Under the pieces are notes generated by a model. The model searched no databases and had not been told where the DNA came from. It saw nothing but the letters and a program-made list of their open reading frames with translations. The translations under genes were made by a program, and so were the position numbers. From an uncultured Gammaproteobacteria bacterium (GTDB lineage Bacteria > Patescibacteriota > Patescibacteriia > UBA9934 > GWF2-40-263), in assembly GCA_964402425.1 (NCBI GenBank), contig CAYOCD010000002.1:27612-91611 (forward strand): a stretch of DNA of 64,000 nt, written 5' to 3'. Shown one piece after another: positions 5,789 to 36,508 of this stretch (the first letter of the stretch is position 1; every line of letters begins with the position of its first letter).

Positions 5789-7540
5789 ATGGAGGCAAAC
5801 GTGAATCTGTCCAATTGTTCTTTTGCGAGACATGGATTTTTTGCCATCTTGTTGTCCGCTTGTTCAGACGACACTCTGACACCAGATCCGACTCTTCACT
5901 CGACAATCGTTGATGGTCAAAAAATGGATTCAGGGTCAGAACAAGACATTACACCAGATGTAGATGTGCCAGACGCGTCTGAAGTCCAAGAGGTTGATCA
6001 GTCTGTTGATACGACGTCCGACGTTTTTGTCTGCAAAGACAATGCTTCGTGTGACACGAAAAATCCTTGCACACAAGATTGGTGTAATCTTGGGACGGGT
6101 GAGTGCCAATACACACCTCTTCCAGACAAGGTTTGTACGGACGGTGATGCGTGCACAGTGAATGATATCTGTACTTCTTCCGGCCAGTGCATTGGCGCAA
6201 AGCAGGTGGTGTGTAATGACAACAGTCCTTGCACAAAAGATTCTTGCAAACAGTTGTCTGGCTGCGATTATGAAGCCGTAGACGCGATTTGTTCGGATGG
6301 AGATGTGTGTACCAAGAATGATTCTTGTGTGGCGGGTCTCTGTCTTGGGACGAAATTTGTCTGTGATGATGGTCTTGATTGCACGGAAGATTCTTGCGAC
6401 AAGAACTTGGGTTGTTCAACAGTGAAGCTGAACAATTTACCTTGCAATGACAACTCTGCCTGCACGATCAATGATCTGTGTGATAAGGGATTTTGCAAAG
6501 GAGCGAGCATTAATTGCTCGGACGCAAATCCTTGCACGCAAGATGTGTGTGATAAGGTTTCGGGATGTTTTTCAGCACCCACCTCAAACGGTTCCAAGTG
6601 TACTGACGGAAACGCCTGCACGATCAATGACAATTGCAAGGATTCCGTATGTATCAGCGGTTCCCAAAAGAACTGTGATGACAGCAGTGTTTGTACAAAC
6701 GATTCGTGCGATGCAGCAACGGGGGAGTGTCTCCATATCGCGGTTGTTGGTGTGCACTATTGCGTTGATAACAACGCTTGCACATACGATGATACGTGCA
6801 AACTTGGTGTCTGCACGGGAAAGATTCTTCAGTGCTACGACGGTCTTGATTGCACGCAAGATTCTTGCGACAAAGGAACGGGATGTTCCTTCATGATTCA
6901 AGACAAGGCGCCTTGTAATGATGGGAACGCTTGTACAATTGGTGACACTTGTGCAAAAGATAAGTGTTTTGGAAATGTAAAAACCTGTGAAGACAACAAC
7001 GACTGTACGATCGATACGTGTGATCCGGCCGTTGGTACATGTAATTTCACAGCAAATGACGGCTATTATTGTAGTGATGTGAACGCCTGTACATCAGGTG
7101 ATGTCTGCAAAGGGACAAAATGTGTCGGTGTTACCATCATCTGCAACGATGGAAATCCTTGCACATCCGATAGTTGCAATCAAAAGACAGGCTGTGTTTT
7201 CTTGCCGACACCAAATGCGCCGTGTGATGATGCAAATCTTTGTTCGACAGACGACATCTGTCAGCAGACGGTATGCAAATCAAAACCGGTTGTGTGTGAT
7301 GATGGAAATACTTGTTCGACGGATACGTGCAATAAGTCGACAGGAAAGTGTGAATTCAAAATCTTTAATGACAGTTATTCCTGCAATGATGGGGATCTCT
7401 GTACAACCGCTGATGTGTGTCTATTCGGCGAGTGCAAGGGGTCGATTAATATGTGTAACGATAACAACCCCTGCACAATCGATGCGTGCAACCCGAAGGA
7501 TGGAAAGTGCGCAAACACAAAAGTCCCCAATTGCATCTGA
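5789..7540 (+). CDS. secreted lipoprotein built from about 19 tandem Cys-rich repeats (C-x-D-G/N-x-C-T-x-D-x-C-x3-5-G-x-C)
   Basis: N-terminus has a signal peptide with an LLSAC lipobox; the rest is repeated units such as CTDGDACTVNDICTSSGQC and CNDGNPCTSDSCNQKTGC. High Cys/Asp/Asn/Thr content and no TM segments. Confidence 0.7.
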   Translation: MEANVNLSNCSFARHGFFAILLSACSDDTLTPDPTLHSTIVDGQKMDSGSEQDITPDVDVPDASEVQEVDQSVDTTSDVFVCKDNASCDTKNPCTQDWCNLGTGECQYTPLPDKVCTDGDACTVNDICTSSGQCIGAKQVVCNDNSPCTKDSCKQLSGCDYEAVDAICSDGDVCTKNDSCVAGLCLGTKFVCDDGLDCTEDSCDKNLGCSTVKLNNLPCNDNSACTINDLCDKGFCKGASINCSDANPCTQDVCDKVSGCFSAPTSNGSKCTDGNACTINDNCKDSVCISGSQKNCDDSSVCTNDSCDAATGECLHIAVVGVHYCVDNNACTYDDTCKLGVCTGKILQCYDGLDCTQDSCDKGTGCSFMIQDKAPCNDGNACTIGDTCAKDKCFGNVKTCEDNNDCTIDTCDPAVGTCNFTANDGYYCSDVNACTSGDVCKGTKCVGVTIICNDGNPCTSDSCNQKTGCVFLPTPNAPCDDANLCSTDDICQQTVCKSKPVVCDDGNTCSTDTCNKSTGKCEFKIFNDSYSCNDGDLCTTADVCLFGECKGSINMCNDNNPCTIDACNPKDGKCANTKVPNCI

Positions 7541-7682: not shown

Positions 7683-9293
7683 ATGAACGCTCTTTCCAAT
7701 CGGTTGCACGGTTCCATTATTTTTCTTGCGTTCGTTGCCGTCGCTTGTTCTCCCGAGTCTCTTGTGGAATCGACACAAGATGCTGTTGCGATGGATGAAA
7801 TGATTACAGAATCTGATGCCTTTCCTTCTGTAGACTCAGAAACATCTTTTGAAATTTCGGACACAGGATCCAGTCCAGGTGAATTTGGTTATCCCTGTGT
7901 TTCAAATGCGGATTGTAATGTTGGATATTGCACAGAAACAAGCAAAGGAAATATCTGTTCGAAAGCTTGTGTTACGGAATGTCCAGAAGATTTTGTTTGT
8001 ACAGGAGTTTCGGCGGGCGGATCCGATATCATGTTTGTCTGTCTTTCAAAGTTTGTTCGGATCTGTGATCCGTGTCACGAACACAAAGATTGCAACACAA
8101 ATGACAAGATCGGGAATCTTTGTCTGGGTGTTGGTGGAGGTGGTCGATTTTGCGGGGTGCAATGTAATCCCGCAAACGATGATAAAGATTGTCCGACCAG
8201 CTTCACGTGCAAGTTTGTGACGGATGGAAAAACGGGATTGTCTGGCAATCAATGTGTGCCATCAAAAAACGCAACATGCAGCTGCTCAACGCGTGCAATT
8301 CAACTCGCGCTTTCAACAGACTGCGAAAATAAGAATGTTTTTGGTGCTTGTTATGGACAACGCGTTTGCAAACCTGAAGGACTCACAAATTGCATAGGAC
8401 AAATTCCAGAGTCAGAAAGCTGTAATAAGCTTGATGACAACTGTGACGGGGAAATCGATAACATCGATCCGAAATCGGTTGGAGGAACCTGTCAGCAGTC
8501 CAATGAATTTGGAACATGCTTTGGTGTCATTAGTGGGTGTGACAAAGGGAATCCCATCTGTAACGCATCTGTGCCGCAACCGGAAGCTTGTAACGGTAAG
8601 GATGATGATTGTGATGGTAAAACAGATGAGGGGTTGTGCGATGACGGAAATGTTTGCACAACAGATCTCTGTAATACGGACGGCTCCTGCAAGCACATAA
8701 AAATTTCAGGAACGGCTTGTGATGACGGAAATGTTTGCACAACGTTTGAACAATGTTCATCTGGTGTTTGCATGGGTGGAACGGTGTTAAATTGTGATGA
8801 CGCCGATAGCTGCTCTGTAGATTGGTGTGATCCGTTCACAGGATGCAATCATAAACCAGCTTCAGACGTAGGATGTCTTGATGACGGCAATGTCTGTACC
8901 CAAGACGTGTGTTTGAATGGGAAATGCACACATCCGAAAGCAAAAGATGGTGGCAGCTGTCTTGATGAGGGGAACGTCTGTACAACAGATGTTTGTGACA
9001 ACGGTGAGTGTTCGCATATTTCAAATTCAAAGCCGTGTGACGACGGAAATCAATGTACGCTAAACGACTCTTGTAAAGACAAAGCATGCATCATCTCTCT
9101 GCCGAAAGTTTGCAATGATGGTAATGCCTGCACGGTTGATAGTTGCGAATCGGCAAAAGGGTGTCTCTTTAAACCAAACCCATTCTCGAGTGATGGTACG
9201 GGTGTTCCATGTCCTGACGACGGAAACGCTTGTACAGAGGATTTGTGCAAAGGCTCCATTTGCGCACATCTTCCAATTCCGGGATGTAACTAA
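7683..9293 (+). CDS. secreted Cys-rich repeat (lipo)protein, paralog of 5789..7540, with an N-terminal MopE-like CxxDDDCDG region
   Basis: Signal peptide MNALSNRLHGSIIFLAFVAVAC. The N-terminal half carries CNKLDDNCDGEIDN and CNGKDDDCDGKTDEG (putative metal-binding motif). The C-terminal half repeats CDDGNVCTTDLCNTDGSC-type units, the same repeat as the upstream gene. Confidence 0.7.
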   Translation: MNALSNRLHGSIIFLAFVAVACSPESLVESTQDAVAMDEMITESDAFPSVDSETSFEISDTGSSPGEFGYPCVSNADCNVGYCTETSKGNICSKACVTECPEDFVCTGVSAGGSDIMFVCLSKFVRICDPCHEHKDCNTNDKIGNLCLGVGGGGRFCGVQCNPANDDKDCPTSFTCKFVTDGKTGLSGNQCVPSKNATCSCSTRAIQLALSTDCENKNVFGACYGQRVCKPEGLTNCIGQIPESESCNKLDDNCDGEIDNIDPKSVGGTCQQSNEFGTCFGVISGCDKGNPICNASVPQPEACNGKDDDCDGKTDEGLCDDGNVCTTDLCNTDGSCKHIKISGTACDDGNVCTTFEQCSSGVCMGGTVLNCDDADSCSVDWCDPFTGCNHKPASDVGCLDDGNVCTQDVCLNGKCTHPKAKDGGSCLDEGNVCTTDVCDNGECSHISNSKPCDDGNQCTLNDSCKDKACIISLPKVCNDGNACTVDSCESAKGCLFKPNPFSSDGTGVPCPDDGNACTEDLCKGSICAHLPIPGCN

Positions 9294-10922: not shown

Positions 10923-11267
10923 ATGAAAATCTCATCGATTCTCGGAACCAACATGGATCTTACAGAGGCTATCAAGATGTATGTAGAGGAACGTGTCGCT
11001 GCATTAGAAAAATTAACGTCAAGTTTTGAAGAGTCTGCTGAGCTGCGTGCAGAATTAGGAAAAACATCCCAACATCACACAAGCGGACCATTCTTTTTTG
11101 TTGAATTTCATCTTGATGCTCCCGGAACAACTTTGAATGCAAAAGCAGAAGGGGAGGATTTGTATGCTATTATTGATGAGGTGCGAGATGACCTGAAAAG
11201 ACAATTAGTAGATTATAAAGAAAGAAATATTGATCAAAATCGTGGCCCAAGACCAGGAAAAGAGTAA
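10923..11267 (+). CDS. hpf: ribosome hibernation promoting factor (HPF/YvyD/RaiA family)
   Basis: N-terminus KISSILGTNMDLTEAIKMYVEERVAALEKL and LYAIIDEVRDDLKRQL match the short-HPF family. It sits just upstream of secA, as yvyD does in Firmicutes. Confidence 0.75.
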   Translation: MKISSILGTNMDLTEAIKMYVEERVAALEKLTSSFEESAELRAELGKTSQHHTSGPFFFVEFHLDAPGTTLNAKAEGEDLYAIIDEVRDDLKRQLVDYKERNIDQNRGPRPGKE

Positions 11268-11331
11268 AAAAATGAGGCCTCTACGGAGGTCTCTTGATTT
11301 ATCAAAGCAAAACCAGCACACTATTGCGCAT

Positions 11332-14103
11332 ATGAGCAAAATTTTGAACATCCTTTTTGGAGATCCAAACAAGAAAGTGATTGCGGATCTGCGTAAAGAA
11401 GTTGAGCACATCAATAAACTTGAAGGTGAGATCAGCATGCTGTCAGATGTTGCCTTGAAGAACAAAACAATTGAATTTCGTGAAATGATCGCACAAGGCA
11501 GAAGTGTGGATAGTCTTTTGTATGAAGCATTTGCTGTTGTTCGTGAGGCGGCAAAGCGAACGTTGGGTCAACGTCATTTTGATGTTCAGCTCATGGGAGG
11601 AATTGTCATGTACCGAGGCATGATTGCGGAAATGCGTACAGGAGAAGGAAAAACATTGACATCGACTCTCGCTCTTTACGCAAATGCGCTTGAAGGAAAA
11701 GGATGTCACCTTGTGACCGTAAACGATTATCTCGCTCGTCGTGATGCGGTTTGGATGGGACAAATTTTTCATTTTCTTGGCATGTCGGTAGGAATCATTC
11801 AGCACGAAGGCGGGTTGATGTATGATCCTGAATTTAAACATCCTGAGCCGGTCGTAGTAGATGCAGAAACAATCCAAACAGAATCTTTTCATGTGCGTGA
11901 AGATTTTTTGCGACCCGTTGAAAGACGGGCTGCTTATGCCGCTGACATTACATACGGAACAAATAATCAATACGGATTCGATTATTTGCGCGACAACATG
12001 GCACCAACCATTCAAGATACGGTGATGCGTGGATTGCATTTTGCCATTGTTGATGAAATTGACTCTATTTTGATTGATGAAGCACGTACACCACTCATTA
12101 TTTCTGCGCCGGCAGAAAAATCAAATGAGTTGTATGTGCGATTTGCACAGATCACAAAAACATTGATTGAGAATGAAGATTACAACGTAGATGAAAAATT
12201 GCGCACAGCTGCGTTTACAGATGCTGGTGTTGAAAAAATCGAAAAATCTCTCGGAATCGAAAACCTTTATGCGGGAGGATCTGGAATGTTGTTTCAGAGA
12301 TTTGCAGATTCCGCCCTCAGAGCGCGCGCAAACTATCAAAAAGATGTTCATTACGTTGTGCAAAACAACGAAGTCCTTATTGTTGATGAGTTTACAGGTC
12401 GTCTCATGCAAGGCCGACGCTTCTCAGAAGGAATCCATCAAGCAATTGAAGCAAAAGAAGGTGTCACTATCCAAAACGAAAGCCAAACACTGGCCACCAT
12501 TACGTTCCAAAATTATTTCCGTATGTATACCAAGTTGTCTGGTATGACGGGAACGGCTGTTACAGAAGCGGAAGAATTTTCAAAAATTTATAAATTGGAA
12601 GTGATTGAGATCCCAACGAACCTTTCTGTTGCGCGTAAGGATTTGCCGGATCGTGTGTTCAAAAATGAACTCGGAAAATTTGAGGCGGTTATCCGTGAAA
12701 TCAAAGAGCGTCAAACAGCAGGGCAGCCCGTGCTTGTCGGAACAGCGTCGGTTGAAAAAAATGAATTGCTTTCAGAGTTGCTGACGAACGCTGGTGTAAA
12801 ACATGAAATATTGAACGCCAAAAACCATGCGCGTGAAGGAGAAATTATTGCTCAAGCCGGACGTGTTGGTGCTGTAACCGTTGCAACAAATATGGCTGGG
12901 CGTGGTGTGGACATTAAACTTGGAGGAAACCCAGGAACAAAAGAAGACGAAGCTCGCGTGCGTGAACTCGGTGGATTACACGTGCTCGGAACGGAACGTC
13001 ATGAATCTCGTCGTATTGATAACCAGTTACGTGGACGATCTGGCCGCCAAGGGGATCCTGGAACAACACAATTTTACGTTTCAATGGAAGATGATTTAAT
13101 GCGTATTTTCGGTTCAGATCGCGCAAAGGGCATCATGGATAAACTTGGGATCCCAGATGATATGCCGATTGAAAACGGCATGATCACAAGCTCAATTGAA
13201 AAAGCACAGGTACGTGTCGAAGGACACAACTTCGACATTCGTAAACATTTGCTTGAATACGATGATGTCTTGAATAAACATCGTGAAGTGATCTACGGTC
13301 GCCGACTTGAGGTTTTGGAGGCGTTTGATAAAGAACCAGAAACACTCAAAGAACGTATTCTTGATATTGTTGAGGGTGAAGTAGAGCAAATCGTTCTCTT
13401 TCATACGGGAGAAAAAGTTATTTCGCCAATACACAAGGCAGAAGGTACTGAAGATGTTGGTGCGGGGGATTGGAATACAAAAGAGATTATTGAGACAGTG
13501 AATACTATTGTCACACTTGATGCAGAATCAAAATCAAAACTTGAGTCCATTTCCATGGAACATTCACGAGATAAACAAGTGATCGCGGGAGCTCGCACAA
13601 AGATGATTGAAACAATCATGACCGTTGTGCGTGATGAATTAAGTAGTTTGCACGATTTGTTTGAGGTAAAAATGGATTTGTTTCACATTGAACGTGCAAC
13701 GCTTATTCGCAGTATTGATATGCTCTGGATTGAGCATCTTTCCGCGATGACCTCTTTGAGAACAGGAATCGGACTGCGTGGGTATGCACAACGTGACCCG
13801 CTCATTGAGTATAAGCGGGAAGGTTACGACATGTTTCAACAATTGCTCGCAGCCATTAACCAAGATGTTACATTCTCGTTCTTCAAATTCGCCCGCCACG
13901 CCGTGGACATGAAAGTTCAGGCGCAACTGAACGACTCACTCTTGAGTCGTTCAGGTGTTCAACTTGCGGGAGCAGAAACAACCTCGAATGAACATTCATC
14001 TGTTGCGAGTACATCGAGTGACGACAAAGTAGGAAGAAATGATCCGTGTCCATGTGGAAGCGGAAAGAAGTACAAGAAGTGTCATCTTATTGGAGGTGAA
14101 TAA
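11332..14103 (+). CDS. secA: preprotein translocase ATPase SecA
   Basis: ORF 11230..14103. SecA motifs: MRTGEGKTLT (Walker A), IVDEIDSILIDEARTPLIIS (DEAD-like), TNMAGRGVDIKLGG, and the C-terminal zinc finger CPCGSGKKYKKCH. The family N-terminus MSKILNILFGDPNKK starts at ATG 11332. Confidence 0.9.
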   Translation: MSKILNILFGDPNKKVIADLRKEVEHINKLEGEISMLSDVALKNKTIEFREMIAQGRSVDSLLYEAFAVVREAAKRTLGQRHFDVQLMGGIVMYRGMIAEMRTGEGKTLTSTLALYANALEGKGCHLVTVNDYLARRDAVWMGQIFHFLGMSVGIIQHEGGLMYDPEFKHPEPVVVDAETIQTESFHVREDFLRPVERRAAYAADITYGTNNQYGFDYLRDNMAPTIQDTVMRGLHFAIVDEIDSILIDEARTPLIISAPAEKSNELYVRFAQITKTLIENEDYNVDEKLRTAAFTDAGVEKIEKSLGIENLYAGGSGMLFQRFADSALRARANYQKDVHYVVQNNEVLIVDEFTGRLMQGRRFSEGIHQAIEAKEGVTIQNESQTLATITFQNYFRMYTKLSGMTGTAVTEAEEFSKIYKLEVIEIPTNLSVARKDLPDRVFKNELGKFEAVIREIKERQTAGQPVLVGTASVEKNELLSELLTNAGVKHEILNAKNHAREGEIIAQAGRVGAVTVATNMAGRGVDIKLGGNPGTKEDEARVRELGGLHVLGTERHESRRIDNQLRGRSGRQGDPGTTQFYVSMEDDLMRIFGSDRAKGIMDKLGIPDDMPIENGMITSSIEKAQVRVEGHNFDIRKHLLEYDDVLNKHREVIYGRRLEVLEAFDKEPETLKERILDIVEGEVEQIVLFHTGEKVISPIHKAEGTEDVGAGDWNTKEIIETVNTIVTLDAESKSKLESISMEHSRDKQVIAGARTKMIETIMTVVRDELSSLHDLFEVKMDLFHIERATLIRSIDMLWIEHLSAMTSLRTGIGLRGYAQRDPLIEYKREGYDMFQQLLAAINQDVTFSFFKFARHAVDMKVQAQLNDSLLSRSGVQLAGAETTSNEHSSVASTSSDDKVGRNDPCPCGSGKKYKKCHLIGGE

Positions 14104-20889: not shown

Positions 20890-22962
20890 ATGCAAACCTG
20901 GAAAACGAAACGGAAGTCTCAAAATACGCAAAAAACCCATAAACCATGGAAGGCGCGTGCGGCAACAATTGTGTTATTGCTCACGACCGTCATTGTTGGA
21001 TTTTATGATTTTCCACTTGCGTGGAATAAAACAGCTGGGTTCATAAAAGAAACCATCAATGTTTCATTGCCAACACGCAACGAACAAGCGTATCGTCTTG
21101 GTCTTGATTTGCAAGGTGGAACACACCTTGTGTATGAAGCGGACATGAAAGATATTTCGGAAAAGGAACGTGAAAACGCACTCGCAGGTGTACGTGATGT
21201 TATTGAACGTCGTGTTAATGCTTTTGGTGTTTCCGAGCCGCTTGTACAAACAACATCCACAGGAGGGGTCTATCGCGTTATTGTAGAGCTTGCGGGTGTT
21301 TTGGATGTGTCTGATGCCATTAATCAAATCGGAGAAACACCTGTTCTTGAATTTAAGGAACAGGGTGCAGAGCTTGATGTTAAACCAACTCCTGAAGATG
21401 AAAAGAAACTTCAAGAGTTGTTAAAAGCGGATCGTGCGGCCGCACAAGCTGTTCTTGCTCGTGCGCAAAAAGGAGAAAATTTTGAAAAACTTGTAGAAGA
21501 AGTCAGTGGAGATCCAACAAAAGCACAATCAAAAGGAATTATTGAAAAGCTCACAGCAGAATCTGTTCAGTATCCACAAATAGCAAAGGCGATTTCACAA
21601 AATCGACCTAGGGTTGGATCTGTATTTTGGAAAACGGTAGAAGAAGAAAATTCCATTGAAATTGTTAAGATATTAGAGAATACAAAAGTAAATAACATGC
21701 GCCTTTCGCACATTCTTATTTGTTTTGAAGGAAAACAAGGGTGTACAAGCAATACTTCCGCTTTAGATGCTAACATTCAAATTTCAAATTTGAAAAAAGA
21801 AGCAACAGCGGCAAATTTTGCAGAGCTCGCAAAAAAGAATTCAACTGATCCTAGTGCTGCATCAAATGGCGGAGATCTTGGATTTGCTACTTCAGAAACA
21901 TACGTTCCATCATTTGCGGCTGCAGCAGAGGCATTGGCCGTTGGTCAAATTTCAGATGTTGTCGAAACAGATTTTGGATATCACTTGATTTACAAGCAAG
22001 AACAAAAAGTATTGCCGGCGTATAAGGTGCAACACATCAGTATGAAGCGCTCGAGCATGTTGGACATCTTGCCACCTGCCTCTCCTTGGAAAAACACACA
22101 ACTTTCCGGAAAACAACTCGAAAATGCCGTTGTTGAATTCGATCCAAACAGTGGAACTCCAAATGTTGGAATTACATTTGATAAAGAAGGGGGAGACTTG
22201 TTTGGAACGTTAACAGCAGCAAACATTGGAAAACCAATTGCTATTTTTCTTGATGGAGAACCTATTTCGACACCAGTTGTTCAAGCGGCTATCTATGGCG
22301 GTCGAGCTGTGATTACAGGAGACTTCACATTAGATGAAGCAAAAATTTTGGCGCAACGATTAAACGCCGGTGCCCTTCCTGTTCCAGTTACTTTGCTTTC
22401 GCAACAAACGGTGGGTCCTACACTTGGAGCCTCCTCGCTTCAAATGAGTATTACAGCCGCTCTCATCGGATTTGCTCTTGTTGCAGGTTATATGATTGCG
22501 TATTACAGACTTGCAGGGTTGTTTTCTGTGATCGCCTTGATTCTGTATGCTTTTTTGAACCTTTCAATTTATCGCATCTTTGATGTCACTATCACCCTTT
22601 CTGGAATTGCAGGATTTATTCTGTCTCTTGGAATGGCTGTGGATGCAAACGTGCTCATTATTGAACGCATGAAAGAAGAAATCTCTGGCGGACGAGATCT
22701 CGCATCTGCCATTCAAGAAGGGTTTGCGCGTGCATGGCCAGCCATCAGAGATGGAAACGTCTCTACACTCGTTGTTGCGCTTGTGCTTTACATCTTCAGT
22801 GAAAGTTTCATTCGTGGATTTGCGCTCATGCTTGGAATCGGTGTTGTTGTGAGTTTGTTTACAGCCATTACAGCAACACGTGTTTACATGACAACCATTT
22901 TCCCAAAACGAGCAGTACTTATGGCTTGGCTTTCCGGTCTCTCTAAACCAAAAAACGTATGA
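20890..22962 (+). CDS. secD: protein translocase subunit SecD with an inserted tandem parvulin-type PPIase module in periplasmic domain P1
   Basis: SecD P1 head and base motifs (GLDLQGGTHLVY, VYRVIVELAGV, IAIFLDGEPISTPVVQAAIYGGRAVITG, LNAGALPVPV) and C-terminal TM helices. An insertion of about 240 aa between them contains a canonical parvulin domain: NFAELAKKNSTDPSAASNGGDLGF...DFGYHLIY. Confidence 0.8.
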   Translation: MQTWKTKRKSQNTQKTHKPWKARAATIVLLLTTVIVGFYDFPLAWNKTAGFIKETINVSLPTRNEQAYRLGLDLQGGTHLVYEADMKDISEKERENALAGVRDVIERRVNAFGVSEPLVQTTSTGGVYRVIVELAGVLDVSDAINQIGETPVLEFKEQGAELDVKPTPEDEKKLQELLKADRAAAQAVLARAQKGENFEKLVEEVSGDPTKAQSKGIIEKLTAESVQYPQIAKAISQNRPRVGSVFWKTVEEENSIEIVKILENTKVNNMRLSHILICFEGKQGCTSNTSALDANIQISNLKKEATAANFAELAKKNSTDPSAASNGGDLGFATSETYVPSFAAAAEALAVGQISDVVETDFGYHLIYKQEQKVLPAYKVQHISMKRSSMLDILPPASPWKNTQLSGKQLENAVVEFDPNSGTPNVGITFDKEGGDLFGTLTAANIGKPIAIFLDGEPISTPVVQAAIYGGRAVITGDFTLDEAKILAQRLNAGALPVPVTLLSQQTVGPTLGASSLQMSITAALIGFALVAGYMIAYYRLAGLFSVIALILYAFLNLSIYRIFDVTITLSGIAGFILSLGMAVDANVLIIERMKEEISGGRDLASAIQEGFARAWPAIRDGNVSTLVVALVLYIFSESFIRGFALMLGIGVVVSLFTAITATRVYMTTIFPKRAVLMAWLSGLSKPKNV

Positions 22963-23886: not shown

Positions 23887-23929
23887 AAAATCCCGAGTTT
23901 CAAACAAGAAACTCGGGATTTTTTCTTTT
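23887..23929 (+). terminator. rho-independent terminator after secDF
   Basis: 15-bp stem aaaatcccgagtttc/gaaactcgggatttt, then tttcttttg. Confidence 0.65.
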
Positions 23930-24020
23930 GTGTTTTTTTGTTATACTGTTTGTGATTCCTTTTCGTTCAATTCCTCTTCTGTTTGTTTCAGAAGAGGTGA
24001 TCCTTCTTGATTTTTCGTCT

Positions 24021-25658
24021 ATGCTTCCCATGCTTGCGATTCAGATCATTGATCAATCCGCGCAATCTTCTCTTCCGTTGATTTCATCGTCTTTTTTTAA
24101 TCAACCGATTGACGTCATTTTTTTTAATCTACTGCTTTGGTTTGGGTGGATTCCAATCTTTTTTACGTTACTTTGGGGATTTTCAGAGTTGTGGCTTGCG
24201 GAGCGTCAAGCAGTTTTTGCGGCAAAACAAAAATACATTTTTCTTGCTGTTGATGTTCCTTCCATGACAGAGCAAACACCAAAAGCTTTGGAAAATTTGT
24301 TTTCTGTTTTATATACAGCAAAATCAAATCCAACGTTTAAGGAAAAATGGTTTGATGGAAAATTCATGCCAACGTTCTCTTTTGAAATTGTTTCAGAAGA
24401 AGGATACATGCAATTTATTATTCGGACACAAGAAAAATTTAGAGATGTGCTTGAGGCGGGTATTTATGCACAATATCCTGATGCAGAAATGAATGAGGTG
24501 CAAGATTATGCATCAAAAGTTCCTGCGCTTTACCCAAATGAAACATATGACATGTGGGGCGGTGAGTTTACGTTTGATAAAGAATCTTTTTTCCCCATTC
24601 GTACATACGTAGATTTTGAAGATCAAATGACTGGAGAAATTAAAGACCCGCTCGGATATACATTGGAACAAATGTCTAAAATGAGACCTGGAGAACATTT
24701 TTGGTTTCAGATGATTTTACAGCCATCAAACAATGATTGGAAAAAGGCTGGAGTTGCATACGTAAATAAAACATTTGGTGTTGAAGAGAAAGCGGCAAAA
24801 AAAGGAGAATTTTCTGCTGCGGCAACAACCGTATTTAAACTTCCATTTGAGCTCATAGAACATGCAACAGCTATTGATCTTGCGCCTATTTTTGGGATGG
24901 GCCCAGCAGAAAAAAAAGCGGAAGATCCATGGAAAGCGTTTAAGCTTGGTCCCGCACAACAAGATGAAGCAAAAGCGATCATGCGTAAAACAATCAAGGT
25001 TGGACACGGAGTAAAAATTCGCATTGTCTATTGTGCAAAAAAAGCTGCATACAAAAAGGGGGACCGTGTCACCATGATCAAAGGAATTCTGAATCAATAT
25101 TCACACCTGAATTTGAATTCCTTTAAGATGAACGCACCGTCCGTTCCAAAGGATGATTACTTCTGGCAAAAATGGGATTATGAAAAAAAACAAACTGTTC
25201 TCATGAAAGCTTATCAGGCCAGAAGTTGGTCTGTTGGAGCAAACCCAATTTTCTTGAATGCAGAAGAACTCGCAACGCTTTGGCACTTTCCAACCATTAG
25301 CACAAAGGCTCCGCTTATTAAAAAAGCAGAAGCGCGCCGCGCGGAACCTCCTGTTGGACTTCCTACAACATTTTTGGAAAATACGTTACCAGGCGTGGGG
25401 GACAACGAATTTCCTTCCACACTTCCTGGTTCCGTACCAATGGAACATCATGAATCTGCGGAGTCTCGTGGAGCGGGTACGTATGTTTCCGCAAAAGAAC
25501 CACTTCCAGAATCATTGCCACACGTGAAAGCCCCAACAGAAAGAGGCCGTGAAGAAACAGGGGATGTTCTCCTGTCAAAAAACCGTTTCATGCAAGACAC
25601 ATCTCCTGCAGATGCCTCTGATGAAGATTTATTTACCCCACCTGACTTGCCAGTTTAA
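24021..25658 (+). CDS. hypothetical membrane protein: N-terminal TM helices, large soluble domain, disordered acidic/Pro-rich tail
   Basis: ORF 23928..25658, but its first 90 nt overlap the secF terminator, so the start is placed at ATG 24021 (MLPMLAIQ). Hydrophobic helices IDVIFFNLLLWFGWIPIFFTLLWGF. No known domain. It ends 18 nt before the next ORF. Confidence 0.45.
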   Translation: MLPMLAIQIIDQSAQSSLPLISSSFFNQPIDVIFFNLLLWFGWIPIFFTLLWGFSELWLAERQAVFAAKQKYIFLAVDVPSMTEQTPKALENLFSVLYTAKSNPTFKEKWFDGKFMPTFSFEIVSEEGYMQFIIRTQEKFRDVLEAGIYAQYPDAEMNEVQDYASKVPALYPNETYDMWGGEFTFDKESFFPIRTYVDFEDQMTGEIKDPLGYTLEQMSKMRPGEHFWFQMILQPSNNDWKKAGVAYVNKTFGVEEKAAKKGEFSAAATTVFKLPFELIEHATAIDLAPIFGMGPAEKKAEDPWKAFKLGPAQQDEAKAIMRKTIKVGHGVKIRIVYCAKKAAYKKGDRVTMIKGILNQYSHLNLNSFKMNAPSVPKDDYFWQKWDYEKKQTVLMKAYQARSWSVGANPIFLNAEELATLWHFPTISTKAPLIKKAEARRAEPPVGLPTTFLENTLPGVGDNEFPSTLPGSVPMEHHESAESRGAGTYVSAKEPLPESLPHVKAPTERGREETGDVLLSKNRFMQDTSPADASDEDLFTPPDLPV

Positions 25659-25676
25659 CCAAGGATTTTTTGCCCT

Positions 25677-28178
25677 ATGGGTTACAATCACGATCACGAA
25701 AACGAGGTCAACTATTTTGCGAAGACAAACTTCCGAAATCAAATGACAAAATTTGGTATCAAAACCGACGATCGCCGTCGACACGTCTATGTGATTGGAA
25801 AAACAGGTATGGGTAAAACTGTGCTTCTTGAGAATTTTACCCTTTCTGATATTTACGCGGGGCACGGTTGCTGTTATGTAGACCCCCACGGAGATACGGC
25901 AGAAAAATTGATTAACTACATTCCAAGTTGGCGTATTAATGATGTTGTTTATTTCAATCCGTCTGATGCGGAATACCCAGTCGGGTTTAATATTCTTGAG
26001 GCGGTTTCAGAAAGACACAAACACCTTGTTGCAAGTGGAATGATGGGTGTGTTTAAAAAGATCTGGGAAGACCAATGGTCATCCCGTATGGAATACATTT
26101 TGAACAATACTATTCTTGCCTTGCTTGATAACCAAGGGTCAACACTTCTTGGAATTAACCGAATGTTATCAGACGCGGACTATCGCAAGCGGATTGTTTC
26201 AAATGTGACAGATCCTGTGGTGAAGCAATTCTGGTTGAGAGAGTTTGCTTCATATAATGAAAAGTATGCTCAGGAAGCCGTTGCTCCAATTCAAAACAAA
26301 ATCGGACAGTTTTTGTCTGCGTCTGTTATCAGAAACATTGTTGCGCAGGTGAAATCTAGTATCAACATTCGTGAAATCATGGATTCCGGAAAGATTTTTA
26401 TTGTGAACTTGTCAAAGGGGCGTATCGGAGAAGACAGTTCTCGATTGCTTGGAGGATTGTTGATCACAAAATTGCAATTGTCCGCCATGGAGCGCGTAGA
26501 CATGCAAGAAAAAGATCGTTTGGACTTTTATCTCTATGTTGATGAGTTTCAAAACTTTGCCGTGGATTCTTTTGCTGGAATTTTGTCAGAGGCGCGTAAA
26601 TATCGTTTGTGTTTGACCATTGCTCACCAGTATATTGCTCAGCTCACTGATGAAGTGCGTGAGGCTGTTTTTGGAAACGTTGGAACGATTATTTCGTTTC
26701 GTGTTGGTTCTCCAGACGCAAAATACATGGAAACAGAATTTGCCCCACGTTTTTTGCCAGAGGACATTATTAATTTGCCAAAGTATAACGTGTACTTAAA
26801 GTTGCTCATTAACGGAGTTACAAGTCAGCCATTTTCCGCTATCACCCTTCCTCCTATTTCTCAAAAGACGGATTCTGAAGAGCGTGTGATTCGCGTTTCG
26901 CGTGAACGTTATGCAAAAGAACGCAGTTTTATTGAAAATCAAATTTTGACATGGAGCGGAATGGGGGATATGGATGTTGATACCATGCTGGCAGAAGCGG
27001 AAGAAAAAAAGAAATCTGACAAAGTGGCTGCAAAAGATGCAAAGAAACCAAAATTTGAGTACGACTGTTCGCGTTGTGCAAAAAAGATGGTGCTTCCCGT
27101 TGAACTTGATAGATCCCGTCCTATTTACTGTGAGGATTGTATTGAGATTGTTCGTGAAGAGAAAAATAATCGTGCTGGAAAAGGAGGGGGTAAGCCAGCG
27201 GATACACGAAATCTTCCACCAAAAGTTCTGCCAAAAGAGGCACCACCTCGCGCGATAAATGAAGGAAAAGAGATGGAGGATCGCCGCCTTCCGGATGAAC
27301 CTACTATTTCACTTTCAACATTGATGCCAAAAGGGGTAGAAGAAAAAAAGGAAGTCATAGAGCAAAAAAAGGTAGAACCAACTCCCGCACCCGCTGTTCA
27401 AAAAATAGAGCCAGTTCTTATTCCACCTGCTGGGTCCCATAGAGTATCTGTTGCCGAACCACAGAAAGCACCTGTCATTGCTCCAAAACAAGCTGTTGAA
27501 TCACCCAAAATAATGGAGTCAATTGTTCGCGTTGAACAAAAACCTATCGTGACAGAGTCTCGCATAACATTTGATCAGCCAGTAAAACACGTAGAGGTGC
27601 AACAAACAGAATCTCGTTCAGCTACCATCGAAAAAACGCCACCAACGACATCAGAACAGCCAAGAGTTGTTCCGCAACCCGTTCGTTCCATGGGAAATTT
27701 ATCTCGTACACCCGCGCAAGCTTCTAATGAATTTTCGTCGACTGGATTAATCACCCCGACAAGGGAAGGTGAAAAGCGAAAGCGAAAGCGTAAACGTAAG
27801 AAAAAAACAGGAGACAGTTCCGTAAATAGAGAATCAATCACCGTACAACTTTCCCAACCGGGACAGACGATTTCTCTTAAGAGTCTGCAAGAACAAAAAA
27901 GACCAGAGTGGACTGAACAATCAAGGAAAGAACAGACTTCTGTCGTCACAAAACTAGTTGAAAAAACAGTTGAGCAATCAATAGAACAACCTGTCGCAAA
28001 GACTGTTGAACCTATTGTAAATAAACAGACTTCTGTTGTTATAAAACAAGTTGAAAAAACAGTTGAACAACCAACGGAACAGCCCGTTGCCAAGTCTGTT
28101 GAACCTGTTGTTCAAAAACCAATTGAGCAATCTACAAGTGGTAAATTATACATTGGCCAGAGTATTAAGTTTGAATAG
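25677..28178 (+). CDS. FtsK-HerA superfamily ATPase resembling type IV coupling proteins (VirD4/TraD/TraG-like), with a C-terminal zinc ribbon and repetitive charged tail
   Basis: Walker A VIGKTGMGKTVL, Walker B LDFYLYVDEFQNF, and ARKYRLCLTIAHQYIAQL (coupling-protein C-terminal signature). Zinc ribbon CSRCAKKMVLPVELDRSRPIYCEDC. KRKRKRKRKKK tract and two 31-aa tandem repeats. Confidence 0.6.
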   Translation: MGYNHDHENEVNYFAKTNFRNQMTKFGIKTDDRRRHVYVIGKTGMGKTVLLENFTLSDIYAGHGCCYVDPHGDTAEKLINYIPSWRINDVVYFNPSDAEYPVGFNILEAVSERHKHLVASGMMGVFKKIWEDQWSSRMEYILNNTILALLDNQGSTLLGINRMLSDADYRKRIVSNVTDPVVKQFWLREFASYNEKYAQEAVAPIQNKIGQFLSASVIRNIVAQVKSSINIREIMDSGKIFIVNLSKGRIGEDSSRLLGGLLITKLQLSAMERVDMQEKDRLDFYLYVDEFQNFAVDSFAGILSEARKYRLCLTIAHQYIAQLTDEVREAVFGNVGTIISFRVGSPDAKYMETEFAPRFLPEDIINLPKYNVYLKLLINGVTSQPFSAITLPPISQKTDSEERVIRVSRERYAKERSFIENQILTWSGMGDMDVDTMLAEAEEKKKSDKVAAKDAKKPKFEYDCSRCAKKMVLPVELDRSRPIYCEDCIEIVREEKNNRAGKGGGKPADTRNLPPKVLPKEAPPRAINEGKEMEDRRLPDEPTISLSTLMPKGVEEKKEVIEQKKVEPTPAPAVQKIEPVLIPPAGSHRVSVAEPQKAPVIAPKQAVESPKIMESIVRVEQKPIVTESRITFDQPVKHVEVQQTESRSATIEKTPPTTSEQPRVVPQPVRSMGNLSRTPAQASNEFSSTGLITPTREGEKRKRKRKRKKKTGDSSVNRESITVQLSQPGQTISLKSLQEQKRPEWTEQSRKEQTSVVTKLVEKTVEQSIEQPVAKTVEPIVNKQTSVVIKQVEKTVEQPTEQPVAKSVEPVVQKPIEQSTSGKLYIGQSIKFE
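27934..28117 (+). repeat. tandem direct repeat, 2 x 92 bp, inside the coding tail of the ATPase
   Basis: cagacttctgtcgtcacaaaactagttgaaaaaacagttgagcaa... recurs from 28026 with about 85% identity. It encodes TSVVTKLVEKTVEQSIEQPVAKTVEPIVNKQ / TSVVIKQVEKTVEQPTEQPVAKSVEPVVQKP. Confidence 0.7.
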
Positions 28179-34673: not shown

Positions 34674-35240
34674 ATGCTCCTTTTTCCGCTCGTTATTCAA
34701 CATCGTCATGTGCATTTGTCGAAGATTGACCTTCGACAATTATTTGGTGATGAAAAATCGTTAGAGATTGAATTTGAATTAGAGCAGAAAGGACAATTTC
34801 TCTACAAAGAAACCGTGAATGTGGAGGGTAAAACAGGCGTGATTGAATCGGTGCGTGTTTTGGGTCCGTGTCGTAGCAAAACACAGGTCGAACTTTCTGT
34901 CACTGATGCATTCGCTATTGGCTTAAAGGCGCCGGCTCGCTTGTCTGGAGATACGCTTCGGGCCGCATCATGTAAACTCGTTGGTCCAGAAGGTTCTGTT
35001 CGAGCTGTGGCTTCTGTTATTGTTCCAGTTCGTCATTTGCACTGTTCAGATCGGGTTGCAAAAAAACTTCACTTGAAAAACCATCGCGTGGTAACATTAA
35101 GGCACGCAGAGAAGCCAGACGTTGTTTTAACACATGTGTTTGTTCGTGTTCATCCAACGTTTGCTCCTGAATTACATCTTACATCTGATGAAGCTGCACA
35201 TTACTGGCTTCATTCCGGTGATTTATTTGAAGTATGTTGA
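34674..35240 (+). CDS. PduL-like phosphate acyltransferase family protein (PF06130-like)
   Basis: Duplicated RHxH-type motifs (IQHRHVHLS and VPVRHLHCS), characteristic of the two-repeat PduL fold. It starts 3 nt after the GT2 gene and overlaps the next gene. Confidence 0.45.
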   Translation: MLLFPLVIQHRHVHLSKIDLRQLFGDEKSLEIEFELEQKGQFLYKETVNVEGKTGVIESVRVLGPCRSKTQVELSVTDAFAIGLKAPARLSGDTLRAASCKLVGPEGSVRAVASVIVPVRHLHCSDRVAKKLHLKNHRVVTLRHAEKPDVVLTHVFVRVHPTFAPELHLTSDEAAHYWLHSGDLFEVC

Positions 35241-36508
35241 AACGTTTTTCGTTCACCGCCATCTTTGCATTCGTTGTTTTTTTAGTTCCGACGTTTGCGT
35301 ATGCAGCAACAGCTGATCTCAAAGTAAGTGCTACGGATATTCGTTTTTCAAAGTCTACGTTAATTGTAGGTGATGCAATACGTGTTTATACAAAAGTTCA
35401 AAACATTGGAACGGTTGATATTGTTGGATATGTAACTTTTTACCAAGGGAGTTCGGTTATTGCAGAGCCGCAAGTGATTTCTGTGGTCGCAGGAAGTGAT
35501 CCGGAAGAAGCGTTTGTTGACTTTGTTGTTCCTGATGGGCCGTTTAATCTCAGAACTGTTATTAGCGGCACAAAACCAGCAGATGAGAACTTAGATAATA
35601 ATGTTGCTATCACTGGAATTTACACCCCTATTCCAGACAAGGATCGAGATGGAATCAAGGATGATTCTGATAATTGTCCAACGATTACAAACCCAAGCCA
35701 ATCAGATTTGGATAAAGATAGTGTTGGTGATGCGTGTGATGATGATATCGATGGCGACGGTCTGACAAACGGTGTAGAAGCAGAACAGGGGACGAATGCA
35801 CAAGCAAAAGATACGGACGGAGATGGAGTCAGTGATGCCCAAGATGTTTACCCACTTGATCCAAAACGTTCCGTATTAGAAAAACCTGTTCCGCCAAAAA
35901 TTGTAGAAAAACAGGTGATGCCAAAACCAGAAATACAAAACACAAAGGTATTGAGTGTGAATACAAAATCTGAAACAGTTTCTAATACGTCTGTTTCAAA
36001 TACAGTTTCACCTTCACTTATTGCCACACCCACACCGTCATTAGACACAGCAGAAGTCGTTTCGATGGAGTCACTGAAAGGGGGTGTATCTCCAAATGCG
36101 GTGTTTTCTTATGAAAAAAGTTCTTGGAACACATTTGTTTTTCGTTTAGTTGCACCTGTCCAGGATCGTTTCGTTTATGAATGGAATTTTGGAGATGGTG
36201 TTCATTCAAGCAAATCAGATGTTACACATACGTATGCACAAGCTGGATCATATTTAGTAACACTCAAAACAACAGATGAAGCAGGGGTTGTTTCAGAAGA
36301 ATCCGCAGAAGTGCATGTCGCGTTTTTTACGTTTTCAAATCCGTTGATTATCGCCTTGCTTACACTGCTCGGAATTGTATTTGTTGGAATTTGTGTGGCA
36401 TTGTTTAAGCTGAAAACAACAAAACGACCAAGAAAAAAAGGGGTCGTAAGTGAATCAGAGACGTCAGAAGAGCAAACGTTAAAACAAATTTTTGTCAAAG
36501 AAGAGTAG
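35234..36508 (+). CDS. cell-surface protein: signal peptide, CARDB-like domain, thrombospondin type-3 Ca-binding repeats, PKD domain, C-terminal TM anchor
   Basis: Signal peptide FAFVVFLVPTFAYAA. TSP3 repeats DKDRDGIKDDSDNCPTITNPSQSDLDKDSVGDACDDDIDGDG. PKD signature YEWNFGDGVHSS...HTYAQAGSYLVTLKTTD. TM IIALLTLLGIVFVGICVALF plus a basic tail. Confidence 0.65.
   Translation: MLKRFSFTAIFAFVVFLVPTFAYAATADLKVSATDIRFSKSTLIVGDAIRVYTKVQNIGTVDIVGYVTFYQGSSVIAEPQVISVVAGSDPEEAFVDFVVPDGPFNLRTVISGTKPADENLDNNVAITGIYTPIPDKDRDGIKDDSDNCPTITNPSQSDLDKDSVGDACDDDIDGDGLTNGVEAEQGTNAQAKDTDGDGVSDAQDVYPLDPKRSVLEKPVPPKIVEKQVMPKPEIQNTKVLSVNTKSETVSNTSVSNTVSPSLIATPTPSLDTAEVVSMESLKGGVSPNAVFSYEKSSWNTFVFRLVAPVQDRFVYEWNFGDGVHSSKSDVTHTYAQAGSYLVTLKTTDEAGVVSEESAEVHVAFFTFSNPLIIALLTLLGIVFVGICVALFKLKTTKRPRKKGVVSESETSEEQTLKQIFVKEE

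Follow-up and report, generated by a model that had tools for sequence, protein, structure and literature searches.

Can a subunit of the protein-export machinery carry its own foldase? This question is raised by the secD gene in a 64-kb stretch of DNA from an uncultured patescibacterium (64,000 nucleotides of contig CAYOCD010000002.1, here called the window). Its product of 690 amino acids (aa) possesses an insert of about 245 aa, which is bounded by the strand PVLEFKE (aa 151-157) on one side and by the P1 head (aa 402-498) on the other. The insert contains two parvulin modules (Pfam Rotamase), in the following designated as outer module A and inner module B. A first-pass annotation had reported an insertion at 21367-22087 with two parvulin copies, a degenerate and a canonical one, read as inactive and active, respectively. 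This stretch equals aa 160-399 of a single open reading frame (ORF). Each copy exceeds the Rotamase cutoff, the residue counts separate them as reported, and all quoted motifs are at the expected places, i.e., VYRVIVELAGVLD at aa 127-139, PVLEFKEQ at 151-158, GENFEKLVEEV at 195-205, SHILICF at 273-279, NFAELAKKNSTDPS at 309-322, GGDLGF at 327-332, FGYHLIY at 362-368 and IAIFLDGEPIS... at 450-477. The anatomy of the insert and its conservation are directly evident from these comparisons; its secondary structure is as modelled by AlphaFold2 (AF2).

The host protein is a bona fide SecD. It scores 364 bits with the NCBIfam model TIGR01129 (cutoff 244.4) from aa 70 through 665, and Pfam identifies Sec_GG (69-87), SecD_1st (101-157), SecDF_P1_head (402-498) and SecD_SecF_C (502-660). 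The best Foldseek matches of the AF2 model are the SecDF structures 5xan, 5xap, 5yhf and 3aqp (E 1e-23 to 6e-19). The layout is that of SecD: a first transmembrane (TM) helix, a large extracytoplasmic P1 domain consisting of base and head, five further TM helices and an adjacent secF. AF2 places membrane helices at 510-563, 570-599, 604-636 and 639-670. The N-terminal residues M1-Q2-T3-W4 are kept among homologs, which supports the start codon. TM1 and the Lys/Arg-rich N-terminus indicate an N-in topology, and thus SecD up to about aa 505 would be extracytoplasmic. The entire P1 domain is then predicted to be outside of the cytoplasm, as the first-pass annotation had it, and MQTWKTKRKSQNTQKTHKPWKARAA fits the positive-inside rule. 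The N-terminal P1 base (aa 69-158) is the most conserved region of the family with a mean column identity of 0.88.

Where exactly is the insert located? The alignment with the Thermus thermophilus SecDF, proposed with the first-pass annotation, matches window aa 64-156 with residues 29-116 ('...VLEFR') and aa 404 onward with residues 159 onward. The insert replaces Thermus residues 117-158, about 42 residues, directly after '...VLEFR116', and it therefore occupies the base-to-head junction of P1. In ordinary SecD proteins the PVLEFKE strand precedes the head. The labels head and base had initially been swapped: the VYRV...PVLEFKE region is the N-terminal P1 base (SecD_1st), and IAIFLDG... lies within the P1 head (PF22599).

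An artefact, be it a frameshift-fused parvulin gene, a chimeric assembly or a chance similarity of an ordinary P1 head, is excluded, and its residual probability is negligible. We found nothing in its favour. The guanine plus cytosine (GC) content of the insert is 0.38-0.39, slightly below the 0.43-0.44 in the remainder of secD; secF at 0.40 brackets the insert value. The Rotamase matches have E values of 1e-28 and 1e-7, which disposes of chance similarity. The flanks on both sides are SecD segments read in one frame with the insert, and the Pfam set recurs in every one of the 120 best homologs (54-97% identity, about 680-700 aa), which disposes of a frameshift fusion. The architecture is shared by around 240 homologs listed at the 90% cluster level, which stem from many samples and sources. 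In addition, parvulin inserts occur in about 100 of the 150 representatives taken at 50% identity and in 26 species-level genomes.

Module B is a canonical parvulin. In the whole protein PF00639 matches aa 274-369 in two stretches (Pfam, E 1.3e-28). Taken alone the module reaches 77.3 bits against a cutoff of 21.7 and covers positions 1-95 of the 97-position profile. Its elements follow the canonical order β1-α1-3-β2-α4-β3-β4, in agreement with the AF2 secondary structure, and the motifs are arranged accordingly, β1 (SHILICF), then GGDLGF, then FGYHLIY. The closest solved relatives are the P2 domain of SurA (1m5y, residues 297-359) and PrsA. H274, D329 and H365 line up with the SurA P2 motifs GGDLGW and FGWH, i.e., the catalytic constellation is present. 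Across 121 family members His is found at position 274 in 115, Gly at 328 in 120, Thr at 360 in 116, Gly at 363 in all and His at 365 in 120 sequences; Asp at 329 is present in 86, the others having mostly Ser, Tyr or Glu. Cys278 and Cys285 are invariant in 121 of 121. Within a larger set of 175 SecD-parvulin sequences both cysteines occur in 102, neither occurs in 73, and one alone occurs in none. This pattern suggests an extracytoplasmic disulfide. In several distant two-module forms, all fused SecDFs of 1025-1099 aa (P0174, P0179, P0187, P0194, P0233, P0239 and P0262), the GGDLG loop of the inner module is exchanged for a longer loop, e.g., GVLSSPVKVGGSYVKEF; FG[YF]H and SHIL are retained. 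The longer loop may be a variant substrate-binding loop.

A different picture emerges with module A. As a separate segment (aa 159-269) it is recognized by the Rotamase profile with 32.9-33.0 bits (cutoff 21.7, E 1.2-1.3e-7), yet only at profile positions 14-95. The order of its elements is α1-α2-α3-β2-α4-β3-β4; β1 is missing in front, and the order is thus not the canonical one. The catalytic His/Asp/His set is absent as well. The equivalent of the Asp (position 217) is Val or Ile, the equivalent of the β4 His (257) is Asn, Ser or Glu, and at position 382, the equivalent of the β1 His in a strand behind module B, 102 of 121 sequences have Arg and 17 have His. No two-module insert contains a second FGYH motif. 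PVLEFKE as the β1 strand of module A was considered and rejected: its addition did not extend the profile match, and the strand belongs to SecD_1st in insert-free SecDs.

The whereabouts of the missing strand are indicated by relatives which carry a single parvulin module. The 'SHIL' motif is the hallmark of the β1 strand with which every ordinary parvulin starts. The single-module inserts read differently: α1, then '...GGDLG' (β2), '...FGYH' (β4), and last 'V[KR]ASHIL[FI]'. The β1 'xHIL' motif comes after β2 and β4 in 113 of 116 such proteins, and the canonical order is found in 0 of 116. The His of the terminal strand (H277) is conserved to at least 90%, the β4 His is invariant, and both histidines and GGDLG are held almost invariantly. 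When the terminal strand of the single-module protein P0137 is moved to the front, the Rotamase match expands from profile positions 10-96 to 1-96 (+2.8 bits) and the Rotamase_3 match from 29-115 to 14-115 (+3.7 bits). The AF2 model of P0137 (77-sequence alignment; mean predicted local distance difference test score, pLDDT, 89.6; insert blocks 95-98) has helices at 174-195, 200-207, 211-214 and 230-237, with strand 219-223 between the last two, followed by strands 249-251 and 254-265, a turn of five residues and strand 271-281. The predicted hairpin of β4 (254-265), turn and β1 (271-281) indicates a circularly permuted parvulin. Judged at the level of sequence, by motif order and re-permuted profiles, the permutation is well established.

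How are the two modules wired in the window protein? The stretch aa 377-386 (AYKVQHISMK, here termed β1') is located where the single-module relatives have the 'V[KR]ASHIL' strand after β4. In the AF2 model of the window SecD (72 sequences, mean pLDDT 78.6, insert block means about 75-92) module A consists of helices 168-193, 198-205 and 211-214, strand 217-221, helix 229-238 and a strand starting at 255. The model shows two unbroken strands, 255-277 and 363-386, of 23 and 24 aa, respectively, at block-mean pLDDT values of 87-92. A hairpin turn at 265-272 or at 372-377 is absent from this model, though it is present in the single-module model. These strands point to one long antiparallel ribbon which passes through both sheets, and module B would be nested in the β4-to-β1' connection of a permuted module A. 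Nesting is favoured because His274 of the SHIL motif goes with the intact active site of module B while β1' is degenerate like module A.

Some observations weigh against this wiring. The gain on placing AYKVQHISMK ahead of module A is small: the Rotamase_3 match extends from 35-112 to 16-112 (+2 bits), and the plain Rotamase profile gains nothing (33.0 to 32.4 bits). The proposed pairing of β1' with module A is deduced from motif order, homolog comparison and the DSSP strings of predicted structures, and at a predicted template modelling score (pTM) of 0.43 the relative placement of domains in the window model is unreliable. One may instead envisage the plain tandem of SurA P1-P2, or two adjacent permuted units, each complete in itself and with its own β4-β1 hairpin. 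The linear order α1..β4 / β1 α1..β4 / β1' is just what a tandem duplication of a permuted unit produces, and sequence order alone cannot tell it from nesting. In favour of a SurA-like tandem, the NCBIfam SurA model spans both SurA parvulins (aa 178-368 correspond to SurA 192-379) and Foldseek aligns about 245 columns to SurA 1m5y. However, such a tandem is excluded by a module A which lacks β1 in front, with a profile match beginning at position 14, and by the β1-like strand after module B. Two separate permuted units are less compatible with the missing turns in the AF2 model and with His274, which co-varies with the active site of module B. Taken together, these non-nested arrangements appear very unlikely.

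Additional candidates in this region were discarded. Assignment of aa 377-386 to the P1 head, as its first strand, does not hold: such a strand is absent from ordinary SecDs with a base-head gap of 6-30 aa. A facing pair of catalytic histidines derived from DSSP ranges was dropped, as strand ends are uncertain by a few residues. A close relative, P0122 (580 aa, 61% identical to the query segment, from a Logan assembly), is without exactly the inner parvulin and retains the degenerate outer module and the trailing β1' strand ('...VSVFKYLNSSQMEDGTPAYTIQRILL...'). Either a natural deletion or an artefact of the assembly could account for it. It does not discriminate between nesting and two permuted units, since deletion of one repeat in any register yields an identical sequence.

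How widespread is this design? We searched 1.84 billion representatives of 50% identity clusters with aa 100-500 of the window SecD and classified the best 150 by sub-domain hidden Markov models. This survey of SecD lengths and domains, also suggested with the first-pass annotation, yielded discrete insert classes. A distance between P1 base and head of 6-60 aa denotes an ordinary SecD, about 122-185 aa one parvulin module, and about 225-265 aa the pair of modules seen in the window; the latter class includes fused SecDFs of 1000-1100 aa. At about 336-402 aa there are possibly three modules. These longest inserts have one canonical Rotamase, and in two of four scanned (P0154, P0259) a separate weak Rotamase_2 match is located upstream. 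They are found in the SecD or SecDF proteins P0154, P0155, P0184 (Peribacterales), P0225, P0259 and others, and a fused SecDF with a 342-aa insert stems from Peribacterales. Seemingly, two degenerate modules precede the canonical one and two β1'-like strands follow it; in P0154 the trailing strands read 'LYSLQKIVVQK' ... helix ... 'LTYERIFYST'. Their sequences suggest triple nesting.

The named close homologs of the window SecD belong to Candidatus Uhrbacteria or to the 'Patescibacteria group', which puts the window in an Uhrbacteria-like bacterium of the candidate phyla radiation. In a scan of species-level genomes parvulins were embedded in SecD at 26 loci, whereas 54 loci coded for ordinary parvulins which stand alone and come from other phyla. 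The titles of the 26 loci include Uhrbacteria, Magasanikbacteria, Falkowbacteria, Buchananbacteria and Parcubacteria/Patescibacteria, and some carry the titles 'uncultured Gammaproteobacteria' or 'Binatia'. We deem the latter titles unreliable because the respective SecDs are 42-68% identical to the window protein at nearly full length. One of these loci (L006:3449-5602, 'Candidatus Binatia bacterium') has a GC content of 64.5%; a two-module SecD, followed downstream by secF, is encoded there on a high-GC contig. The outer module has degenerated less, GGDLGF is kept, and β1' reads 'YHLHHILF'. Either this genome is mis-binned or mislabelled, or the architecture reaches beyond the typical low-GC members of the candidate phyla radiation (CPR). 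The single-module form is equally widespread: PF00639 is present inside SecD in each of the 120 best homologs of P0137, and the names comprise Veblenbacteria, Kerfeldbacteria and Nomurabacteria, among others. Among the 150 representatives P0218 (407 aa, partial) is the sole single-module insert in canonical order, with β1 first and no trailing β1'; it may have arisen by an independent insertion or be a different deletion product. Thus, the design of a parvulin in SecD is family-wide in Patescibacteria, with inserts of one, two and possibly three modules and with fused SecDFs.

All named records label the parvulin-bearing proteins plainly as 'SecD'. Permutation and nesting explain this naming by annotation pipelines as well as the under-called outer module. 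The sequences are already public and have automatic Pfam matches. In full-text searches of the literature neither a fusion of SecD with a parvulin nor a permuted parvulin nor a PrsA-type foldase of Patescibacteria came up. The conserved architecture is thus previously undescribed in the literature searched, although it does not constitute a new principle. In the first-pass annotation the insert was taken as a possible substitute for a missing free PrsA or SurA. Within the 64 kb of the window and within 4 kb on either side of the 26 related loci no further parvulin was detected.

What might be the function of such an insert? The P1 head has a cavity which touches precursor proteins, and the head swings among the Super-F, F and I forms (PMC5974789), a movement for which a coupling with proton flow is presumed (PMC5974789; PMC6028853). 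Parvulins have been encountered at this site in several systems. The SurA of Escherichia coli binds to the SecYEG-SecDF-YidC holo-translocon, and AlphaFold puts both SurA parvulins on the P1 head of SecDF (PMC9987972). PpiD-YfgM is located on SecYEG (PMC9643414). The dome of Mycoplasma pneumoniae, built from PrsA-like parvulin lipoproteins, sits constitutively on SecDF-SecYEG, and substrate density reaches the one active peptidyl-prolyl isomerase (PPIase) domain (bioRxiv 10.1101/2025.04.25.650208; 10.1101/2024.09.05.611430). We propose that the insert is a translocon-tethered PPIase and chaperone which acts on chains held by the P1 head, and we assign a probability of about 0.65 to this proposal. 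It would correspond, in covalent form, to SurA-SecDF, to PpiD-SecYEG and to the dome complex of Mycoplasma, and a translocon-tethered foldase appears to be a reasonable interpretation in view of these cases. In this scheme the P1 head would take up the unfolded chain from SecYEG and swing under the proton-motive force. A rigid double-parvulin unit would branch from the hinge beside the binding cavity of the head. The inner module B would catalyse prolyl cis/trans isomerisation in chains on the P1 head, and the inactive outer module A may serve as a scaffold or a substrate-binding surface. Export and a first step of folding or hand-over would then take place on a single polypeptide.

By family assignment the protein belongs to SecD, with two modules of the parvulin superfamily; it is neither a SurA nor a PrsA nor a PpiD. 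With the SecD and SecDF proteins from T. thermophilus (3AQP, 5YHF), of the Deinococcus radiodurans type (5XAN/5XAP) and from E. coli it shares the full core, from the GG motif via P1 base and P1 head to the five C-terminal TM helices, as well as the neighbouring secF. It differs from the solved SecDFs by the approximately 245 aa of parvulin modules; no solved SecDF has an enzyme domain at this position. E. coli SurA (1M5Y), built from an N-domain, an inactive P1, an active P2 and a C-tail, likewise combines one inactive and one active parvulin, and their predicted position on the SecDF P1 head (PMC9987972) is a physical pairing as in the window SecD. Yet the N/C chaperone core of SurA is absent here: PRK10770 matches the parvulin region only with 52.7 bits against a cutoff of 394, and no SurA_N-type Pfam domain is detected in the window SecD. 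In SurA the modules are sequential, whereas those of the window protein are nested in the arrangement favoured here, with a permuted outer module, and form part of the chain of a membrane protein. An outer membrane is regarded as absent from the host lineage.

PrsA (Bacillus, Listeria, Staphylococcus) and PpiD (E. coli) are extracytoplasmic, membrane-tethered parvulins which act just after Sec translocation, as proposed here. They are separate proteins in which the parvulin is set within an NC chaperone domain with a lipid or single-TM anchor; in the window the host domain is SecD P1. The respective models remain far below their cutoffs (PRK03002 64.8 against 343 and PRK03095 43.6 against 361 for PrsA; PRK10788 45.3 against 493 bits for PpiD), and the modules are not encoded by a gene of their own. 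The sequential SurA/PrsA-like arrangement assumed in the first-pass annotation was thus abandoned: the chaperone domain of SurA, PrsA and PpiD is lacking, the curated models do not apply, and the outer module is permuted. The Mycoplasma pneumoniae dome (Mdp444/436/489) also has one active and degenerate parvulin domains, held at the Sec exit through SecDF. It is, however, a non-covalent chamber of large lipoproteins limited to Mycoplasmoidaceae, whereas the CPR proteins have an in-chain insertion of one to possibly three small modules.

Several points speak against a catalytic foldase. D329 is replaced by Ser, Tyr or Glu in about 29% of the close homologs, and some distant fused SecDFs have substituted the GGDLG loop. 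Because of these replacements and remodelled loops catalysis may not be the universally selected function of the inserts. SurA functions as a chaperone independently of its PPIase activity, and the parvulin of PpiD is inactive; both are parvulin domains which work without PPIase activity. Both the PPIase activity and a binding of substrates are putative, and so is the way in which the parvulins would face the P1-head cavity. On these grounds one can argue that the modules are nothing but a holdase or docking surface which extends the binding surface of the P1 head or recruits clients like SurA P1 and the PpiD parvulin, with the 'catalytic' residues being kept for binding or stability. The outer module, which clearly is non-catalytic, fits such a role. 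Yet the near-invariance of His274, His365, Thr360 and Gly363 in the counts given above persists despite overall identities of 54-97%, and even the single-module forms, though permuted, preserve both His and GGDLG. Such retention is what one would expect from selection on the active site, and we consider a purely holding function unlikely.

Alternatively, the insert may have a role in regulating or stabilising SecDF itself, e.g., in gating or biasing the head swing, in docking to SecYEG/YidC or in anchoring to the wall or S-layer. Its location at the base-head junction, the pivot of the head movement (PMC5974789), and the rigid ribbon-linked unit predicted by AF2 are compatible with that idea, and the discrete size steps of one, two and possibly three modules could tune reach or geometry. 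A purely structural element, however, would not predict a preserved catalytic constellation of parvulins, and independent systems join parvulin chaperones to SecDF for the handling of clients (PMC9987972; 10.1101/2025.04.25.650208). Regulation of SecDF therefore strikes us as very unlikely, and the translocon-tethered foldase is the reading which we prefer.

The coordinates of secD, its subdomains and secF are compiled in Table 1.

Table 1. Features of the secD-secF locus (positions in the window; aa numbers refer to SecD)
Feature	Position	Strand	Evidence or remark
secD	20890..22962	+	uninterrupted 690-aa ORF; stop overlaps secF start by 4 nt
secF, translationally coupled partner, 297 aa	22959..23852	+	TIGR00966 260 bits (cutoff 160)
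TM1 (aa 19-40), preceded by Lys/Arg-rich N-terminus	20944..21009	+	AF2 helix 19-40
GG motif and N-terminal P1 base (aa 69-158), ends in PVLEFKE	21094..21363	+	Pfam; Thermus alignment
Outer parvulin module A (aa 159-267), catalytically degenerate	21364..21690	+	Rotamase 32.9 bits; AF2
Inner parvulin module B (aa 268-372), canonical order, catalytic set kept	21691..22005	+	Rotamase 77.3 bits
Cys278 and Cys285, loop after β1 of module B	21721..21744 (codons 21721-21723, 21742-21744)	+	conservation
β1' strand AYKVQHISMK (aa 377-386), proposed displaced β1 of module A	22018..22047	+	motif order; AF2 strand 363-386, block-mean pLDDT 88-92
P1 head subdomain (aa 402-498), includes IAIFLDGEPISTPVVQAAIYGGRAVITG	22093..22383	+	PF22599 E 1.2e-30, profile 18-114/114
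TM2-TM6 (aa 502-676), RND-type membrane domain	22393..22917	+	SecD_SecF_C 502-660; AF2 helices

Further genes of the window were noted. About 7 kb upstream of secD-secF there is a secA (957 aa, 11230-14103, + strand) with the full set of SecA domains including the SEC-C motif; nucleotide-kinase, glycosyltransferase and hydrolase genes lie in between. Straight downstream of secF (23928-28178, +) follow a 576-aa ORF without a Pfam match and an 833-aa coupling ATPase (VirD4/TrwB-like) with a repetitive C-terminal half of low complexity ('VEKTVEQ.[IT]EQPVAK.VEP' units). Two neighbouring proteins of 583 and 536 aa (5789-7540 and 7683-9293, +) have Cys-rich Dicty_CTDC repeats (PF00526, E 2e-36 and 4e-19), a repeat named after slime moulds and odd for a member of the CPR; both proteins are possible clients of secretion, rich in disulfides. 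PKD and thrombospondin type-3 repeats are found in a 424-aa protein (35234-36508, +), which is probably located at the surface or secreted.

What does a parvulin inside SecD mean? For the hand-over of proteins from SecYEG to extracytoplasmic folding factors, in a compartment which has no ATP, the evidence so far comprises low-resolution or predicted SurA-SecDF contacts in E. coli, crosslinks of PpiD/YfgM and a dome specific for Mycoplasma. A parvulin fused with SecD P1 provides 'Rosetta-stone' evidence for a P1 head and a parvulin foldase which handle one client simultaneously. Conserved across many lineages of Patescibacteria, the fusion lends independent evolutionary support to the SecDF-parvulin hand-over model.

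One may go further and view SecDF as an energy-coupled extracytoplasmic foldase, and the family at the same time as a natural series of parvulin permutation via duplication and nesting; as a joint proposition this is distinctly unlikely. If true, each power stroke could bring the captured chain to the PPIase groove and subsequently pull it off, because the modules branch from the hinge of the P1-head swing which is driven by the proton-motive force. This would amount to driven chaperone cycling in a compartment without ATP. The series would then lead from a single permuted unit via a canonical module nested in a permuted one to possibly a triple nesting.

The proteins offer a compact single-chain system for probing such a coupling, either as a soluble domain of about 450 aa or as SecDF. 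A permuted and nested parvulin would be a clean natural example of fold permutation by duplication. For the biology of the CPR, the inserts exemplify how function is consolidated into multidomain proteins in small genomes.

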